A stretch of 64,000 bases of DNA from Escherichia phage vB_Eco_F25, in the sequence record OP870144.1. One strand, written 5' to 3'. The notes beneath the pieces are model-generated. The model did not search any database, was not told where the DNA came from, and saw only the letters and a program-made list of their open reading frames with translations. Positions 56,554-63,803 of this stretch are shown here, one piece after another (positions within the stretch are counted from its first letter, which is position 1; every line of letters begins with the position of its first letter). A program made the position numbers and the translations under genes.

Positions 56554-56960
56554 TCATGTTATGTTAGTAAGACTACTATAACACAACACGAGGGACTTGT
56601 AAACTACATTTTGAACTTTTAGTACGCGTAATAGGCATGCGTCGATTTTATACTGTTTCATTGTTTGAAGAGCAGTATCAAAAACAGCATTAATGACACC
56701 AATTGGATTTCCACCCAAGTTTTTAAGCTTAACTAATGATAGTTTCTCATTAACACCTATCATTACGATATGCATCATTTTGTCGCCTGGTTTAACGTTT
56801 TATCTGTATCACCGCCAGAGGTGTATGTACAAAATCTAAATCCAGGAAGCACGCTTTCTTCGCCGGCTTGAATAGCAAAAATTTGTGGTATTTTATGCTT
56901 AGGATTTAAGTTAACAACCGGCGCCGAAGCGCCGTCAAATAATTCTGTAATAAGTTCCAT
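56554..56960 (-). pseudogene. Frameshifted partial duplicate of the alt N-terminal region (two small ORFs)
   Basis: ORF 56775..56960 and ORF 56554..56778 each align by eye to the Alt N-terminal region (about residues 1-60 and 64-120) but in different frames; SD precedes first ATG. Confidence 0.55.
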
Positions 56961-56963
56961 GAT

Positions 56964-59054
56964 TTATCCTTGAACGAACTTGTAAGGCATGTTTGCAATA
57001 TCTATGCAAGACGCAATAATTCCAAGAGATGATTCTACTTTCTGTTTAACATTTGATGAAACAAATGATGCAAAGTCAACTCTATCTTCTATATCACCTG
57101 TCATTGTAACCAATTCACCAGTTTCCATTAAATGGTCTCCGTCATAGATTACCGATTCGGTGAGTTCTTCTGTGGTCATAACTTCAGCTTGAATGAGTTT
57201 TGTATTATTAGATGTTGTTCCGTCATTATTAGAAGCATCAGTTATTTTATTAACTTTGACCATCAATCCGCGCGGTAGAATAACTTCAGCTTCTGTTGCT
57301 ATTCCGAGACTTCCTGGATATACAACATTAACTTTATGAGCTCCATCAATTGCCCATCCTATTTGAACTTTAACGTATTCAGGATTTTCTTTATACGCTC
57401 TTATTTCGCTTGGATTAATAGTTATTCCTTCTTCATTTTTATCAACTGTCAATTCATTACGAGCTTCTGGTTCTAAAAGACCAATACCAGCATGTGTAAT
57501 TCCAAAACGTCCAAAAATGATAGGAGTTAAAGAAGTAGATACAAAATTTCTGAAATAGAACACTTTATTTTTAACTAGTGCTTCGTATATAGGAGCAGTC
57601 ATGCTTTGAGCACGATAAACTGTAATGCCTTCTGGTATACGGTCACCATTTTCAAAAGCTGAATCTAAGTTATTTATAGCAGATTCAATTTCTTTTTCAC
57701 TCATTACATCATATCGTTCTGGATTGTAACGACCCAAAAGAAGATTATTGATGTCAGTATATCCTGAACCACAATACTCTCTAATGCCGCGCTTTTGTGA
57801 TGGAGTATATTTAGAACCATCACGGGCAATAGTAATATCAATCATTGGACCTGCACCAATTCCAGAAAAACTGTAAATCATTCGTTTGAGGAATTTAGTT
57901 TTTGCTGCGTTCCAGGAATTTTTAGTTATTTCTTCCCAGACTTCATCTGGTTGTCCTTTACGATTTTTATTATGATTAGCAAGCCATTTATCTTTATAAT
58001 CTTCAAAGAATTGATTTACAGCTGCTGCGTATTTCTCTAAACATTTTATTGAAGTAGTTGGTTCATTTTTAATTGCATTAAAAATTACTTCTTTAATTTT
58101 TTCTGAAACTTCATTAACCTCACTTTTTGAAAAGAATTTATAGTCATAGTGAAGTTCATCTGCGGTTCCTTCGGCAATAATTTTTGCTGCCTTAGTTTTA
58201 GAAGCTAATGAATTAATTCCAAGCTTCATTTCTTCTGCTTCGGGAATTAAAGGAGCTGTAGCAGGTTTATTGAAATTAGCTGCGGTAGATTCATATTTCT
58301 GGAATAATTCGCTTTCAAATCTAGAAGATTCTAATGACTGACTTTGCGCAATTGCTCTACGGGAAATTTTAACTTTAACGATTACAGCTTGGTCAGAACG
58401 TTTATCATTTTCTTGTGCAATAGATGCTGCAATTGCCTCATTTTTAGTTACTTGGGCTCCAGTATCTTTATTGATATAAACATCACCGACTTTTGATTCA
58501 ACTTTAGTAAAGAGCTCGGTACTAATTTCCGGAACTCCTGGAATGTCTTCTAGTGATACATTTTTGCGATGTATAAGAATATATGCGTACTTTTTATCAT
58601 AATCCCAGAGTTCCTTAAGAAGGACGTATCTACCACCTGAACGACTACGGATAAGTCTATCAGCAATAACTTGAATTTGTCGAGCTTGGCCAGCAGTTTT
58701 AGACTTAAGAATACGAAGCATACAAGCATCAATTTTATATTGACGCATTGTTTGCATTGCAACAGTAAAAACTGAATTGATATAATTAATTGGGCTTGGA
58801 CCAAGACCTTTTAATTTAGCAATTGAACCTTTAGCAGTTAATGTAAAAGGAACAATATGCATCATTTTATCGCCCATCTTTAAATCGCGATTAGTATCAC
58901 CTCCAGATGTATAGGTACATAAACGAAAGCCTGGTTGTTCAATTGCATCATCAACATGAACTGAAAAAATTTGTGGTATTTTCTTCTTTGGATTTAAGTT
59001 TGTAATCGGAAGAGTAGTATCTTCGTCAAATAATTCTGTAATGAGTTCCATCAT
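56964..59054 (-). CDS. alt: Alt ADP-ribosyltransferase (head-packaged)
   Basis: 696-aa ORF (T4 Alt about 682); late promoter and GAGAGGA SD upstream; position between gene 54 and gene 30. Confidence 0.85.
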   Translation of the reverse strand: MMELITELFDEDTTLPITNLNPKKKIPQIFSVHVDDAIEQPGFRLCTYTSGGDTNRDLKMGDKMMHIVPFTLTAKGSIAKLKGLGPSPINYINSVFTVAMQTMRQYKIDACMLRILKSKTAGQARQIQVIADRLIRSRSGGRYVLLKELWDYDKKYAYILIHRKNVSLEDIPGVPEISTELFTKVESKVGDVYINKDTGAQVTKNEAIAASIAQENDKRSDQAVIVKVKISRRAIAQSQSLESSRFESELFQKYESTAANFNKPATAPLIPEAEEMKLGINSLASKTKAAKIIAEGTADELHYDYKFFSKSEVNEVSEKIKEVIFNAIKNEPTTSIKCLEKYAAAVNQFFEDYKDKWLANHNKNRKGQPDEVWEEITKNSWNAAKTKFLKRMIYSFSGIGAGPMIDITIARDGSKYTPSQKRGIREYCGSGYTDINNLLLGRYNPERYDVMSEKEIESAINNLDSAFENGDRIPEGITVYRAQSMTAPIYEALVKNKVFYFRNFVSTSLTPIIFGRFGITHAGIGLLEPEARNELTVDKNEEGITINPSEIRAYKENPEYVKVQIGWAIDGAHKVNVVYPGSLGIATEAEVILPRGLMVKVNKITDASNNDGTTSNNTKLIQAEVMTTEELTESVIYDGDHLMETGELVTMTGDIEDRVDFASFVSSNVKQKVESSLGIIASCIDIANMPYKFVQG

Positions 59055-59105: not shown

Positions 59106-59292
59106 AGTAATCTAGTGGTAAGAGAGTACGATATATTTCAAACTTTGGTCCTTTTTCATAGGCATCAAATGTTTCTGTAAATTTATTATAAGCGTATGCA
59201 TCTACAAATTCGAGAATGACTTGTGATACAGAAGTAGAAACATCTCCACCTTCTTTTTGAGCAATGACAATTGTTTCTAAGTAAGCTTTCAT
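59104..59292 (-). CDS. Hypothetical small protein
   Basis: 62-aa ORF; ATG overlaps the gene 30 stop (ATGA). Confidence 0.55.
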   Translation of the reverse strand: MKAYLETIVIAQKEGGDVSTSVSQVILEFVDAYAYNKFTETFDAYEKGPKFEIYRTLLPLDY

Positions 59293-60752
59293 AGACCAGT
59301 TACCTCATGAAAATCACCAAATACATCCTCGAATGTATTAGCTTTAGTTTTATCTTCACGTAAACGAATCGCAATCGGAAGAAATAATTTAACGTAATCA
59401 GTACGTCCATCTAATTTTACCCAGCCGTTGCATTCGCACTCTAGAATTTTTCCAATATAATAATTTTGGTTTTCCATAATGCGAGTACGGTCAAGTTCAT
59501 GCGATTTTACGCCGGCTTTATCTTTTAAGCCTGAACCAGCATTTACTTTAATTTTTCCACACTCTGACTCAAGAATAAATCCACCTGCTTTAGTAGGGTC
59601 TTTACGGTGAGGATAAATTCCTACAATTTTTAAATCAACATCAATTACTTCTTTAAATTTATAAAGATTTTTTGAACGAGCATTTTCCCATAATCCATCG
59701 ATATTTTTGAGAATAATACCTTCAAGACCTTGGTCAATATACTTTTTGTAAATTACCTTAGCTTCATCTAGGTTATTTACTACTTGGTTTTCAATTAAAA
59801 TTACTTTATCATAGCCTGATGTCATTTGTTCTAGTTTAGAAAAACGTACATCATATTTTAAACGAAACGCCGGAAGACCGTATATTTCTACCAACGGAAC
59901 ATAATCCCAGACCTGAAACTTCATGCATTGAGCTTCTTTTTCTGAAATAGTTCCCTTTAAAGATTTATTAGCGATTCCATTAGAAGTAGTACGTGATTCA
60001 GCTACTTCGGCGAATTCTTTAGCTTTACTAATTTCAGGATAAGCATCAAAAAGAAAATCTAGGCCTTCTGGCTCCTTTTCAACTTGCTCATGGTATACCA
60101 ATTCGCCATCAATTAACACACCTTCTGGATGAATCTGGCGAGCTTCTGCAGTCATTTTGATTAACTCTTCTTTGAGAAGATCTAATCCTAGATATTCATT
60201 ACCAGCTCGTGATAAAAGACGAACATCATCTAATTCATCACCTCTGACTTCAGCAAAGCACCGAGCTCCATCAGCTTTTAATTGGGCAAAGGCTGGAAAT
60301 TTGATATTCTTATTAATGCCTTTTTCATCATAAGAACTTGCCAGCATTTGAGGTTGTTCAGGAATTAAACCTGGCCAAACTTTGTTTGCAATAGATACTG
60401 ATGCACCACATTCAAGGTCTCGCATCATCACCCGACGCAAAACTTCAACATCATCTTTTTTACCGTCAGCAATATATCCAGTTAATTCCTCAATTGCCGC
60501 ATTTCCGGTCAATTTCCGAGTAGCTAACGTGAATTCAATGAAGTCAAGCATATCGGTAAGAGTCAACATTCCAAAACTCTGGGTAGCAATACCAGGTTTA
60601 GGCCATTTCTTGATATAATACTGTAACCCACGAGAATAAGTCAGACGATATACTCGTTTAAGCAATTCATTATCTTTATTCTTTTCAAGAATTGCTTGCT
60701 TCTGCTTAGTTGAACCAATAGATGCTATTTCGTTCAGAATTTTAAGAATCAT
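59289..60752 (-). CDS. 30: ATP-dependent DNA ligase gp30
   Basis: 487 aa; adenylation motif KADGARC; T4 ligase length. Confidence 0.95.
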   Translation of the reverse strand: MILKILNEIASIGSTKQKQAILEKNKDNELLKRVYRLTYSRGLQYYIKKWPKPGIATQSFGMLTLTDMLDFIEFTLATRKLTGNAAIEELTGYIADGKKDDVEVLRRVMMRDLECGASVSIANKVWPGLIPEQPQMLASSYDEKGINKNIKFPAFAQLKADGARCFAEVRGDELDDVRLLSRAGNEYLGLDLLKEELIKMTAEARQIHPEGVLIDGELVYHEQVEKEPEGLDFLFDAYPEISKAKEFAEVAESRTTSNGIANKSLKGTISEKEAQCMKFQVWDYVPLVEIYGLPAFRLKYDVRFSKLEQMTSGYDKVILIENQVVNNLDEAKVIYKKYIDQGLEGIILKNIDGLWENARSKNLYKFKEVIDVDLKIVGIYPHRKDPTKAGGFILESECGKIKVNAGSGLKDKAGVKSHELDRTRIMENQNYYIGKILECECNGWVKLDGRTDYVKLFLPIAIRLREDKTKANTFEDVFGDFHEVTGL

Positions 60753-61018
60753 TGTTCATCCTTTAGAGTTTGGTTTACAGCTCTATTATAAATCAATTCA
60801 TCATTAAGCTCAGTCAAAGACCTATGGTACGTGGTTCTAACTTTATTTCCTTGCATCCAGTGCTTGACGTAAATAAAACCTTGCTCTACACATTTTTTAA
60901 AAATTCGTTCGTCTTTTTGAGCTCGGAATTCTGGATTGCATCTAAAAAATTGATTTACGTGACCGTAATCACGTGTAGTATTACCTTCATTTTCATAAAT
61001 AGTGTGAACGACAAACAT
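60749..61018 (-). CDS. 30.1: Hypothetical protein (30.1 position)
   Basis: 89-aa ORF, start/stop overlaps with neighbours. Confidence 0.6.
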   Translation of the reverse strand: MFVVHTIYENEGNTTRDYGHVNQFFRCNPEFRAQKDERIFKKCVEQGFIYVKHWMQGNKVRTTYHRSLTELNDELIYNRAVNQTLKDEQ

Positions 61019-61860
61019 TAGAATGCTCCTTGGAAAATATTATCACCACTAGTAGGTCTATTATACAAATACTCTATGCCACCAGGTTTAATATAGTTCC
61101 ATGTATGAAATGGATGCACATGATATGGATGTGTATAATATGGATGGTATGGATTTAATCCAGGAGTTCTCCAGGTAGTATTCCAACGAAAAGAATCGTT
61201 TTTAATCATCTTTTCAATTACATCTTTTATAGCTTTTTCACTATCAAAACTTTCTTTATTTTCCTTCGATGGAAAAAGCTTATTCTCTACATCATTCCAT
61301 GTATAAACTCGCTGAGCGGTTTTTGGAATACTGTCACGCTCCCCTCGAGCCATCCAATAAACAGGAACATTTAATATTTCACTCGCATGATCGCAGTGGT
61401 GAGCGAGATCGTCAATATAACAAATTACGTTATATTTCTCTTTTGCCTTTTTGAACAACTCTTCTTTTGAAGAATCATGACCACACATCAATACTTCTGA
61501 GAAGGCACCAGGAAAAAGAGCATTCAAATTAAATTGACGATTCAGCAGAGCGTCAATAGAATCACCCAATGCTGTAACAGCTACAAAATTATAATCTTCT
61601 TTTAATTTGTTAATTACGCACAGGGCATCTTTATATGGAGACAAATAGCGAATAAAATCTGAACGATTATACTTTTCGATTAATTTAACACCGAGTTCTT
61701 CATCGCAATTAAAGAGCTTACCAGGAGAAATAAATTTTTCGTCCTGAATCATTTTTAAAATATGTTCCAACGGAAGATTATATTTTTGGGCAAAATAAGG
61801 AAGGCCCGATTGCCAGCTTAAACACACCCCGTCAATATCAGTCAAAATAGTAGGCTTCAT
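61018..61860 (-). CDS. 30.2: HAD-superfamily phosphatase-like protein with His/Pro/Tyr-rich C-terminal tail (30.2 position)
   Basis: 280 aa; HAD motif I ILTDIDGV, motif IV-like ICYIDD; tail PYHPYYTHPYHVHPFHTW. Confidence 0.6.
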   Translation of the reverse strand: MKPTILTDIDGVCLSWQSGLPYFAQKYNLPLEHILKMIQDEKFISPGKLFNCDEELGVKLIEKYNRSDFIRYLSPYKDALCVINKLKEDYNFVAVTALGDSIDALLNRQFNLNALFPGAFSEVLMCGHDSSKEELFKKAKEKYNVICYIDDLAHHCDHASEILNVPVYWMARGERDSIPKTAQRVYTWNDVENKLFPSKENKESFDSEKAIKDVIEKMIKNDSFRWNTTWRTPGLNPYHPYYTHPYHVHPFHTWNYIKPGGIEYLYNRPTSGDNIFQGAF

Positions 61861-62315
61861 AGAGAGTCTCTTAATAGGTTTAACACATCAATAAATTCAG
61901 CTTCGGTTAGTATTGTATCATCTTTTGTTAGACCACTAGCCATGCTGTGCTTCAAAACTTTTCCTTTCGAGGCTTGTAATGCATCACGAAAACCCCTGTT
62001 TTGGATCGCTGCTTCAAAATATGCATTTGTGTATAATTCTTTCCATGCTGGAGAGTATCTTGAAAATGGAACTCCAAGCCAGAACAACGTGCCACGGTCC
62101 TGAGCTCTAGCATAAGACCTTCCAGCTTGTTGGGCGGCAAGCCCGGATAACCCAAATATACGTCTTTGCTGTTCAACATTTTTCACCTTACATCCTTGGA
62201 GGAATCCTTCGAGACCTCCAAATTGGATACCATCCATAACAAAAGGCCATTGGGCGAAATTACTTAATGCACATGATGGCCATCTAAAATTGCTTCTAAT
62301 CTCTAGCTCAGACAT
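61857..62315 (-). CDS. 30.3: NADAR (YbiA/DUF1768)-like protein (30.3 position)
   Basis: Track ORF starts at TTG; ATG at 62313-62315; LSNFAQWPFVMDGIQFGGLEGFLQGCK resembles recalled YbiA/NADAR core. Confidence 0.5.
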   Translation of the reverse strand: MSELEIRSNFRWPSCALSNFAQWPFVMDGIQFGGLEGFLQGCKVKNVEQQRRIFGLSGLAAQQAGRSYARAQDRGTLFWLGVPFSRYSPAWKELYTNAYFEAAIQNRGFRDALQASKGKVLKHSMASGLTKDDTILTEAEFIDVLNLLRDSL

Positions 62316-62514
62316 TTTCAATACTTATAATTTCAACATCAGCCCAATGACCATAGCAAGGAAGACGAAATTCAATTGGCCAGTTAGGGTCCTTTTCTAA
62401 TATAATAGACTTAACTTGCGGTTCTTCATGTTCATCGGTATACGGACCTTTATATGTTACTTTATATGTGACCTTAATGTACTGAATTCCAAAAATCTTA
62501 TTAATTATATTCAT
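62308..62514 (-). CDS. Hypothetical small protein
   Basis: 68-aa ORF, ATG overlaps upstream stop. Confidence 0.55.
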   Translation of the reverse strand: MNIINKIFGIQYIKVTYKVTYKGPYTDEHEEPQVKSIILEKDPNWPIEFRLPCYGHWADVEIISIENV

Positions 62515-63036: not shown

Positions 63037-63402
63037 TTAAATATCAAATTCGTTAAGAACTACATCAAAGATTGCTTCAAGATGCTCAGGTTTAGCTCTG
63101 TTACTCAAAATATGACGAATCCAAGTTTTAACCAGAAGCTTACGATTAACGCCATTCCAGCAAGGATGAGTCCCTAAATCGCGTTGACGGAAATCATCAT
63201 CTAATGCGATTTTAAAAGAAGAACCTTCTTTCGTGATTGAAACCGTGATGCCATTTTCAAATCGCATATAAACGTAGTTAGGAGTCATATACTGTTCAAT
63301 TTCGCATACTGATCCATTTTGATGTTTCCAAAGGCAGATAGTATCAATAGAACCTGCAATACCATTAGAAACATATTTACGTTCAAAGTTGATGTAGTTC
63401 AT
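63037..63402 (-). CDS. Hypothetical protein
   Basis: 121-aa ORF with GGAG SD and early promoter upstream. Confidence 0.6.
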   Translation of the reverse strand: MNYINFERKYVSNGIAGSIDTICLWKHQNGSVCEIEQYMTPNYVYMRFENGITVSITKEGSSFKIALDDDFRQRDLGTHPCWNGVNRKLLVKTWIRHILSNRAKPEHLEAIFDVVLNEFDI

Positions 63403-63470: not shown

Positions 63471-63803
63471 TTATTTTACTACTTTCCAATGTTGCATGTC
63501 AAGTTTACCAACTTTTTTCATCTTCTCAATTAAGCGTTCGGCACGTTGGCGGGCTGTAACATAATACCATTCACCTAATTCATTTTGTTCAATTTTTCCA
63601 ACGATTACTGTATTCAATTCATAAATCCAGCCAGTAAAGAAATTATGAACTTGGATTGTAAAGGTGAAATCTGTTCCCATACCTTCTGTTGTTTCTACTT
63701 CAATAATATCACCTTCAACTGCCATTAAGAACCACATAGTTTCATCATATTTACCATTGAAGCATTTAGTTTTAACCGCAGCGTTCAGATTAATCGTTTT
63801 CAT
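63471..63803 (-). CDS. Hypothetical protein
   Basis: 110-aa ORF, GGAG SD, early promoter upstream. Confidence 0.6.
   Translation of the reverse strand: MKTINLNAAVKTKCFNGKYDETMWFLMAVEGDIIEVETTEGMGTDFTFTIQVHNFFTGWIYELNTVIVGKIEQNELGEWYYVTARQRAERLIEKMKKVGKLDMQHWKVVK

Follow-up and report, generated by a model that had tools for sequence, protein, structure and literature searches.

A NADAR-fold counter-DarTG1 hydrolase and a predicted HAD-superfamily phosphatase encoded side by side near the DNA ligase gene of a T4-like phage

The 30.4-30 gene block

The window analysed here, 64,000 nucleotides of Escherichia phage vB_Eco_F25 (OP870144.1), comes from a Tequatrovirus closely related to T4. It carries the early gene block 30.4-30.3-30.2-30.1-30 of T4-like phages, within which genes 30.3 and 30.2 lie side by side. 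The initial annotation had placed two open reading frames here, at 61857..62315 and 61018..61860, and both were confirmed on the minus strand. The block and its surroundings contain the following features:

62308..62514, minus strand: gene 30.4, 68 aa, directly upstream of adfN, PHROG 2042
ATGTCTGA, minus strand: overlap of the 30.4 stop and the adfN start, checked by translation
61857..62315, minus strand: gene 30.3 (adfN), 152 aa, NADAR-fold DNA ADP-ribosylglycohydrolase, anti-DarTG1, the function taken from the T4 protein (PMC11257639)
61857..61860, minus strand: ATGA shared between the stop codon of adfN and the start codon of 30.2
61018..61860, minus strand: gene 30.2, 280 aa, predicted HAD-superfamily phosphatase with a C1 cap and a disordered C-terminal tail
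60749..61018, minus strand: gene 30.1 (DUF3045), Pfam PF11243 at E=2.9e-64, between 30.2 and the ligase gene
59289..60752, minus strand: gene 30, ATP-dependent DNA ligase, 98.6% identical to T4 gp30
56964-59054: alt

The ATG start of adfN at 62315 agrees with the T4 annotation and with the primers that cloned T4 adfN (MSELEIR...), and the alternative TTG start at 62321 in the list of open reading frames, two codons upstream of the ATG, is not needed. ATGA overlaps join all genes of the block from 30.4 to 30, as is typical of T4. A sigma-70 promoter and terminator scan of the 59-64 kb region, which is uninformative for T4 middle promoters, returned 19 promoter-like sites where 18.6 were expected, and hence no enrichment.

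AdfN, the product of gene 30.3

Neither window protein matched a NADAR, HAD or NT5C entry in direct sequence searches of Pfam, NCBIfam and the PDB. The Pfam matches to NADAR and HAD/NT5C foreseen in the initial annotation were absent for the single window sequences at E<=1, and both links emerged via family profiles, family members and structure prediction.

The window gp30.3 is identical to T4 AdfN at 150 of 152 residues (98.7%), and the two differences, K107R and I125M (T4-to-window order), are both conservative and neither is catalytic. The two proteins also agree in length, gene position (between 30.4 and 30.2), E36/K43, His123 and the C-terminal helix. Pfam PF08010 (Phage_30_3) matches gp30.3 over its full length (E=5.3e-70, 234.1 bits where the gathering score is 36). 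The Pfam NADAR model PF08719 (DUF1768) gave no match to the window protein at E<=1, and one homologue, P0173, carries PF08010 and PF08719 together. The AF2 model (pLDDT 93, pTM 0.88) has the NADAR alpha+beta fold, and its best three Foldseek matches, which are also the sole confident PDB matches, are YbiA (2b3w), PnNADAR (8bau) and the G. lovleyi NADAR (8bat). The SNF..WP..DG..F core occupies residues 18-32, a stretch that the family profile aligns to the same region of E. coli YbiA, with a match at the SNF..DG..EGFLQ..K motif. The proposal that 61857..62315 encodes a NADAR-like protein was thus borne out by PF08010, by the profile match to YbiA and by Foldseek, the kinship of gp30.3 with NADAR/YbiA being one at superfamily level. 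The following elements were located in the gene:

62256..62264, minus strand: S18-N19-F20, start of the NADAR core motif, invariant in 44 homologues and profile-aligned to YbiA 'SNFA'
62208..62210, minus strand: catalytic Glu36, invariant in 44 homologues
62187..62189, minus strand: catalytic Lys43, at least 90% conserved in 44 homologues
61947..61949, minus strand: His123 in the last beta-strand (120-123 in the model), invariant in the 44-homologue alignment
61860..61904, minus strand: C-terminal helix, residues 138-152 (138-151 in the model), with EAEFIDVLNLLRDSL intact and identical to T4

AdfN shares with DarG1/BC4488-type NADAR antitoxins and YbiA (8bat, 8bau, 2b3w) the fold (Foldseek probability 0.98-1.00, TM up to 0.68), the SNF...DG...E..F.Q..K core and the hydrolysis of ADP-ribosyl-guanine. 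In contrast to these proteins, AdfN is encoded by an orphan gene with no linked DarT, is without the DarG1 N-terminal extension and is only 15-18% identical to them. His123 marks the phage gp30.3 branch, the residue being Glu in the YbiA family and Asp in the BC4488/DarG1 family (PMC11125620, PMC11543638). The RB69 allele is truncated, is without the C-terminal helix and is inactive (PMC11257639).

T4 gp30.3/AdfN has been established as a guanine-specific DNA ADP-ribosylglycohydrolase directed against DarTG1 (PMC11257639, PMC11125620, bioRxiv 10.1101/2025.11.20.689424), for which it is both necessary and sufficient. Deletion of adfN from T4 caused a 4-log loss on DarTG1, while ectopic AdfN rescued RB69; the substitutions E36A and K43A abolished counter-defence, and the purified protein strips ADPr from DNA (PMC11257639). 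In the published T4 transposon screen (HIDEN-SEQ), 30.3 insertions were lost under DarTG1 (log2FC -7.25, adj p 0), and the mild depletion of 30.4 insertions is likely a polar effect. Unlike DarG1-type antitoxins, AdfN fails to neutralise DarT1 in E. coli cells that are not infected, and it only partly rescues non-T-even phages, a missing phage factor being one possible reason listed by the authors (PMC11257639). As for the window phage, its gp30.3 is AdfN and a predicted counter-DarTG1 protein, since 98.7% identity ties this allele to a T4 protein tested genetically and in vitro, and nothing substantial speaks against this identification. As a single-domain NADAR hydrolase, it would use Glu36 and Lys43 for catalysis, with His123 in place of the cellular Glu/Asp. 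The host toxin DarT1 would ADP-ribosylate guanine in phage DNA, AdfN would then cleave the N-glycosidic bond between ADP-ribose and guanine, and removal of the ADP-ribose would restore replication in DarTG1 hosts.

That a NADAR protein might counter a DarT-like toxin, as the initial annotation had suggested, is precisely what the published T4 work shows. Its mention of ADP-ribosylated guanine or thymine holds for guanine (PMC11257639, PMC11125620) and fails for thymine: the T4 NADAR hydrolysed G-ADPr and left thymidine-ADPr untouched in vitro (PMC11125620), and AdfN is inactive against DarTG2, which is dealt with by a separate macrodomain protein, Tk.4/AdfM. The suggested link to the ADP-ribosyltransferase Alt was not sustained either. 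AdfN acts on ADP-ribosyl-guanine in DNA, alt insertions were neutral under DarTG1 (log2FC -0.01), and no evidence was found that AdfN reverses or recycles the protein adducts of Alt. The NADAR and anti-DarT reading of gp30.3 is correct but already known, and its recovery is a confirmation, not a discovery. The erasure of DarT1 guanine ADP-ribosylation by an orphan, antitoxin-like NADAR of T-even phages, shown experimentally in 2024-2025, was here read from raw sequence.

gp30.2 as a HAD-superfamily phosphatase

The gp30.2 family comprises about 1,450 phage records and 1,384 family representatives, and its gene is usually found beside DNA ligase. The DxDGV and DD motifs first noticed in 61018..61860 correspond to DIDGV at residues 8-12 and to D150-D151, and are conserved well beyond chance. 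All four HAD motifs are kept across the 1384 family representatives and in alignments of 40 and 68 homologues; among the 68, which extend down to 22% identity, D8, D10 and K132 never vary and D151 hardly does. The window protein matches PHROG 420 (E=3.6e-92), and its model contains a Rossmannoid HAD core with a cap insertion. The Pfam HAD models PF00702 and PF13419 gave no match to it at E<=1, and weak PF00702 matches occur in 9 of the 40 closer relatives and in 6 of the 68 distant ones. By fold and catalytic residues, as seen in the alignments and the model, gp30.2 qualifies as a genuine HAD-fold phosphatase. Its predicted elements are as follows:

61825..61839, minus strand: HAD motif I, D8-I-D10-G-V, with the putative nucleophile Asp8 and acid/base Asp10, both invariant in both homologue alignments
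61603..61815, minus strand: C1 cap, residues 16-86, four helices (16-26, 32-40, 46-49 and 54-65 in the model), starting at the conserved Trp16
61573..61575, minus strand: HAD motif II, Thr96, at least 90% conserved
61465..61467, minus strand: HAD motif III, Lys132, invariant
61408..61413, minus strand: HAD motif IV, Asp150-Asp151, predicted Mg2+ ligands, at least 90% conserved
61021..61263, minus strand: C-terminal tail, residues 200-280, low-confidence, His/Pro/Tyr-rich and variable between phages, with pLDDT 38-54 past residue 220
61045-61077, minus strand: G-x-G-I-E-Y..R-P-T motif at the end of the tail, present in 14 of 65 long homologues

The tail is missing from many homologues. A resemblance of the tail to baseplate gp7 (G[IV]EY ... 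IFQG at about 20172) was taken as chance, the best BLASTP E-value being 0.92 and IFQG being unconserved in homologues. Fusion partners offered no functional clue, as most long homologues carry only unannotated extensions. The N-terminal domain of one homologue, P0243, matches a PHROG labelled 'DNA polymerase' and has no Pfam or PDB match; from its GDLD motif it looks like a Pol-beta-type nucleotidyltransferase, a likeness too thin to use.

Several comparisons point from the HAD fold to nucleotidases. The top Foldseek match of the gp30.2 model is a cytosolic deoxyribonucleotidase, and deoxyribonucleotidases have the best target-normalised TM-scores (0.64-0.70). Profiles of the family match 3bwv (E=1.7e-5) and 2jao (E=0.018), followed by other nucleotide phosphatases. 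Pfam NT5C (PF06941), which gave no match to the window gp30.2 at E<=1, is matched by 19 of 68 distant family members at E<=0.001, and at least one of these, P0336, passes its gathering score (37.3 against 24.8 bits). The 5'(3')-deoxyribonucleotidases (NT5C; cdN/mdN; S. epidermidis 3bwv) have the same HAD core, DxD/T/K/DD motifs and four-helix C1 cap as gp30.2, as well as an aromatic residue eight positions past the nucleophile: Trp16, at least 90% conserved among the 68 homologues, aligns with the Phe after motif I in the cytosolic deoxyribonucleotidase 2jao. They differ in that identity is 17-19%, that gp30.2 has an invariant Arg108/Asn111 helix, and that in T-even phages gp30.2 ends in a disordered tail of 80 residues, which carries a conserved motif at its terminus.

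In such an enzyme, catalysis would be Mg2+-dependent, with Asp8 forming a phospho-aspartyl intermediate and Asp10 serving as acid/base, while the phosphate would be bound by Thr96 and Lys132 and the metal by Asp150/Asp151. A small substrate may be enclosed by the four-helix C1 cap; by class it is most likely a (deoxy)nucleoside monophosphate, and its base would stack against Trp16, as against the equivalent Phe of 5'(3')-deoxyribonucleotidases. Our best guess is that gp30.2 is a small-molecule nucleotide phosphatase, an accessory enzyme of the nucleotide pool that is dispensable in the laboratory. A literature search for gp30.2 returned no report of an activity or phenotype, and one covering T4 genes 30.1 to 30.3 yielded nothing relevant.

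Some points sit less easily with a nucleotidase. The NT5C link of the window protein is indirect, given that no Pfam HAD/NT5C model matches it at E<=1, and the C-terminal motif, being conserved, hints that gp30.2 binds another protein, for which a nucleotidase would not account. In addition, T4 builds host dNMPs back into phage DNA. An enzyme dephosphorylating dNMPs in general would seem to work against the phage, which speaks for a substrate that is narrow or unusual. Taken as a whole, the locus probably encodes two independent enzymes: the NADAR hydrolase AdfN, and a HAD phosphatase likely to serve as a nucleotide-pool accessory.

Other roles considered for gp30.2

A different role for a nucleotidase would be counter-defence, that is, the destruction of a nucleotide which host immunity uses as trigger, precursor or signal. 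Such a role has a functional precedent in T5 Dmp, a deoxynucleoside-5'-monophosphatase that is phage-encoded, DxD-type and Mg-dependent, like the predicted gp30.2. This HAD-type dNMP phosphatase depletes dAMP and thereby blocks Kongming (bioRxiv 10.1101/2024.12.20.629578), and another defence is set off by dNMPs released when host DNA is degraded, m6-dAMP among them (PMC12871103). Moreover, gp30.2 is widely conserved although growth on K-12 does not require it, which is the usual profile of an anti-defence gene, and its block holds a proven one, adfN. However, gp30.2 has no homology to T5 Dmp beyond motif I: common descent was rejected at an hhalign probability of 1.5%, and T5 Dmp itself has no match in Pfam. 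T5 Dmp is encoded in the first-step-transfer DNA of T5, a context unlike the 30.2 block, and unlike T4-like phages, which reuse host dNMPs, T5 discards them. The screen data for RnlAB and DarTG1 likewise give no defence-dependent phenotype for 30.2, and in distant phages the family lies among replication genes and not in variable anti-defence islets. The PUA-Cal-HAD system also restricts T2, a close relative of T4, which presumably carries 30.2 as well. Counter-defence as the function of gp30.2 is, on balance, unlikely.

Alternatively, gp30.2 might be a DNA end-healing 3'-phosphatase working with the neighbouring ligase, clearing 3'-phosphates at nicks, left for example by nuclease damage or when abasic or ADP-ribosylated sites are processed, and readying these nicks for sealing. 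Across phages, no neighbour of the HAD gene is more conserved than DNA ligase (near it at loci L001, L002, L005 and L012), an adjacency that would suit end healing as well as it suits a nucleotidase. The HAD gene adjoins the ligase gene or lies no more than two genes away in Tequatrovirus (the window), Slopekvirus, Schizotequatrovirus and Biquartavirus, and in a rearranged metagenomic contig the ligase gene is upstream and still near. Outside Straboviridae, its neighbours encode clamp loader, RNase H, exonuclease and PhoH, which belong to replication and repair, and gp30.2 has a weak PHROG match to polynucleotide kinase/phosphatase (phrog_415, E=0.004). Against this, gene order is conserved among T4-like genomes, which confounds any argument from neighbourhood there, and T4-like phages already encode PseT. 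The nearest matches of gp30.2 in sequence and structure appear to be nucleotidases and not PNKP-type enzymes, and its model has a full four-helix C1 cap. In the HAD superfamily a C1 cap goes with small-molecule substrates, while the known DNA 3'-phosphatases (PNKP, T4 Pnk) are essentially capless. An end-healing function thus appears rather unlikely.

It can also be speculated, at a similarly low probability, that gp30.2 is a substrate-specific phosphatase for counter-defence or pool sanitising, which would remove one nucleotide (a modified host dNMP or an immune-signal precursor), while GIEY..RPT docks it to a protein of replication or repair, for example the neighbouring ligase. In that case it would parallel T5 Dmp against Kongming from an unrelated HAD lineage.

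The initial annotation had implied that the HAD and NADAR proteins are paired. Judged within +/-8 kb loci, Krischvirus MIZ5 has a NADAR gene adjoining the ligase gene and no HAD gene, while Schizotequatrovirus and Biquartavirus have the HAD gene by the ligase and no NADAR gene within 8 kb; the HAD gene stands alone in Paride and DLP_6, and the NADAR gene in Rhizobium, Ralstonia and Aeromonas AS-szw phages. T4 tolerated transposon insertions at 72 of 72 sites in 30.2, which is non-essential, and these insertions were neutral under DarTG1 (71 sites, log2FC -0.12, p 0.61, adj p 1.0), as they also were under RnlAB and M9. Since other phages carry either gene without the other nearby and resistance to DarTG1 does not require 30.2, 30.2 and 30.3 are independent, and gp30.2 is neither partner nor cofactor of AdfN. 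A functional pair, in which the HAD protein processes the released ADP-ribose or ribose-phosphate or is an additional T-even factor for full AdfN activity, could draw on the ATGA overlap as a sign of coupled translation, on the weakness of AdfN outside T-even infection with the missing factor considered by its authors (PMC11257639), and on the near-identical distribution of the two families across phage genera; but such overlaps join every gene of the block, the common distribution is simply that of Straboviridae, purified AdfN is active alone in vitro, several lineages have either gene without the other adjacent, and under DarTG1 only the 30.3 insertions were lost, so that the pairing is highly improbable and already largely refuted by the published screen.

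Once identified, the substrate of gp30.2 would close a gap in the picture of T4 nucleotide metabolism; it might also place a second phage nucleotidase among the anti-defence factors.

Gene organization around the DNA ligase gene

The region belongs to a T4-like phage. Searching with 1.9 kb of sequence centred on it gave matches in 713 phage records, for the most part Tequatrovirus of Escherichia and Shigella, with identities reaching 97.4%. The window proteins are 95–99% identical to T4 gp30, gp30.1, gp30.2, gp30.3 and gp30.4, and the coordinates and motifs given for 30.2 and 30.3 in the initial annotation are correct.

Genes of the block and alt, in minus-strand order
62308-62514, minus strand, gene 30.4, first in this order
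61857-62315, minus strand, gene 30.3 (adfN), after 30.4
61018-61860, minus strand, gene 30.2 (HAD), after 30.3
60749-61018, minus strand, gene 30.1, between 30.2 and gene 30
59289-60752, minus strand, gene 30 (DNA ligase), after 30.1
56964-59054, minus strand, alt, following alt.1, past the ligase gene

From 30.4 to 30, neighbouring genes overlap successively by ATGTCTGA, ATGA, TAATG and ATGA, which is the usual compact T4 arrangement. Window Alt is just 71% identical to T4 Alt (696 versus 682 aa), whereas the flanking genes reach 95–99%, and this suggests an alt allele that is either mosaic or fast-evolving. Downstream of alt (56554-56960, minus strand), two small ORFs duplicate the N-terminal part of Alt, much like the partial duplication annotated as alt.-1/alt.-2 in T4.

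Gene 30.3 and the anti-DarT factor AdfN

The product of gene 30.3 (152 aa) matches Pfam Phage_30_3 (E=5.3e-70) and shares 150 of 152 residues with T4 gp30.3. As a single sequence it matched neither Pfam NADAR nor solved structures, whereas a profile of 44 homologues reached E. coli YbiA (E=0.004) exactly over the SNF..P...DG....E.F.Q..K core on which the NADAR assignment had first been based. The AlphaFold model (pLDDT 93) bears out that assignment, as its top three PDB matches are the NADAR structures YbiA 2b3w, 8bau (from Phytophthora, with ADP-ribose) and 8bat (Geobacter lovleyi, DarT1-linked), the lower ones not being credible. Residues E36, K43 and H123 are conserved among homologues, and the C-terminal helix is complete in the window protein. 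Judged by sequence and predicted structure, window gene 30.3 is AdfN.

Resistance of T-even phages to DarTG1 was mapped to 30.3, renamed adfN, by Johannesman et al. (PMC11257639). In that study, T4 and T2 deleted for adfN fared about four logs worse on DarTG1 hosts. Ectopic AdfN rescued RB69, in which the native allele is missing the final 15 residues. The E36A and K43A mutations abolished activity, and purified AdfN stripped ADP-ribose from DarT1-modified DNA. Two other studies are in agreement. Assayed independently in vitro, T4 NADAR acted on guanosine-ADPr but had no activity on thymidine-ADPr (PMC11125620). In the published T4 transposon screen, 30.3 was dispensable on K-12 and lost under DarTG1 (log2FC -7.25, adj p 0), while alt insertions were neutral (log2FC -0.01); DarTG2 is countered in T4 by a separate gene, tk.4/adfM. 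The NADAR part of the initial annotation, including its proposal that the protein counters DarT-like toxins, was therefore largely right and already in the literature. Its suggested thymine activity was wrong, and its connection to the ADP-ribosyltransferase Alt finds no support, the substrate of AdfN being a DNA base.

At 62308-62315 (minus strand), the stop codon of 30.4 and the start codon of adfN overlap (ATGTCTGA). Insertions in 30.4 were also depleted under DarTG1 in the published T4 screen (log2FC -1.79, adj p 0.014), which is most simply explained by polarity on adfN or its translational coupling to 30.4, without invoking a second factor. The 30.3' gene, a T4-annotated 75-aa ORF in another frame inside adfN, is open in the window too (61952-62179, minus strand). 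Over this stretch, the codon differences between window and T4 are 12 synonymous and 1 non-synonymous when read as adfN, against 0 and 14 when read as 30.3', and so give no indication that 30.3' is under purifying selection.

Several T4-like phages (homologues P0114, P0139, P0186, P0115 and P0116) carry broken adfN alleles, unlike the intact window copy. In-frame deletions have fused the C-terminal part of AdfN to an N-terminus taken from gp30.7, gp30.8 or gp30.4, and frameshifts lead from one of the adfN and 30.3' frames into the other. Every such allele is missing either E36/K43 or the C-terminal portion of AdfN, and the phages are accordingly expected to be sensitive to DarTG1, as is RB69.

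Window segments matching the fusions
63037-63402, gene 30.7
63471-63803, gene 30.8
62308-62514, gene 30.4

Gene 30.2 and the deoxyribonucleotidase branch

The product of gene 30.2 matches PHROG 420 ('unknown function', E=3.6e-92), and no Pfam model matched the window protein. Its homologues (n=40) carry the full HAD signature (D8xD10G, T96, K132, D150-D151), with D8, D10, R108 and K132 invariant across 68 relatives down to 22% identity. The structural model, confident over residues 1-190 and with a tail disordered from about residue 200, has a Rossmannoid core and, straight after motif I, a cap insertion of four helices. The conserved motif set and modelled HAD core uphold the earlier HAD call and identify the predicted product as a HAD phosphatase.

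Three observations suggest that its nearest relatives are in the 5'(3')-deoxyribonucleotidase (NT5C) branch. The family profile reaches mouse cdN (2jao, E=0.018), and a broader profile reaches the S. epidermidis deoxyribonucleotidase-like 3bwv (E=1.7e-5), then SSM1/SDT1, XMP phosphatase, mdN and cdN. Within the family, which numbers 1,384 representatives by exhaustive profile search, 19/68 sampled members match Pfam NT5C at E<=0.001, and one (P0336) passes the gathering score. Foldseek ranks cdN first, the best target-normalised TM-scores (0.64-0.70) belonging to deoxyribonucleotidases. No Pfam NT5C match was obtained with the window protein itself, which is therefore classed as working like NT5C rather than as a member. 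In the profile alignment, conserved Trp16 aligns with the Phe after motif I of cdN, a residue that stacks on the base in deoxyribonucleotidases. T5 Dmp, the only phage dNMP phosphatase to have been studied well, shows no detectable relationship, and homology to it was rejected.

DNA ligase is the steadiest neighbour of the HAD gene, which keeps a role of gp30.2 in DNA end-healing as a less likely rival. With its complete C1 cap and its nucleotidase-like relatives, gp30.2 more probably acts on a small nucleotide. Near the C-terminus (61045-61077, minus strand) lies a G-x-G-[IVL]-E-Y-x(2-3)-[QR]-P-T motif, preceded by a variable, disordered, His/Pro/Tyr-rich linker. Among 65 long homologues, 14 conserve this motif, at identities to the query of 46-96%, and it looks like a docking peptide. 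In P0243 (591 aa), a gp30.2-type HAD (residues 386-586) is fused to an N-terminal domain that matches PHROG 24943 ('DNA polymerase', E=1.7e-34) and nothing in Pfam or PDB; the GDLD...VDL pattern of this domain is suggestive of a Pol-beta-like nucleotidyltransferase.

Independence of the two genes

Arrangements of HAD and NADAR genes (locus judged within 8 kb on either side)
Slopekvirus: NADAR, two ORFs, HAD, ligase
Krischvirus MIZ5: NADAR adjoins ligase; HAD absent there
Schizotequatrovirus and Biquartavirus: HAD beside ligase; no NADAR within 8 kb
Pseudomonas phage Paride and Stenotrophomonas DLP_6: HAD amid replication genes and PhoH
Rhizobium, Ralstonia and Aeromonas AS-szw phages: NADAR without HAD at the locus; in AS-szw near PRPP synthetase and NAMPT
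Metagenomic T4-like contig L012: PhoH, ligase, two ORFs, HAD, two ORFs, UvsY; no NADAR among the genes called
Temperate-phage-like contig: NADAR adjoins integrase; no HAD

In the T4 screen, 30.2 insertions were tolerated at 72/72 TA sites and were neutral under DarTG1 (log2FC -0.12, p 0.61), under RnlAB and in M9 versus LB. With the genes apart in other phages and their functions separated by the screen, the partnership implied initially does not hold, and gp30.2 and AdfN are not a functional pair. In AS-szw (L008, 8001-12509), two genes lie downstream of the gp30.3-type NADAR, a PRPP-synthetase-like one at about 400 bp and one for nicotinamide phosphoribosyltransferase at about 2.5 kb. This NAD-salvage setting is unlike that of T4-like coliphages, where the NADAR is found near ligase. 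Three distant loci, in Paride (L003), DLP_6 (L004) and L012, have a PhoH-like ATPase gene within a few genes of a gp30.2-type HAD. On present findings, gp30.2 is no more than an ordinary HAD nucleotidase-like enzyme, widespread, conserved and laboratory-dispensable.
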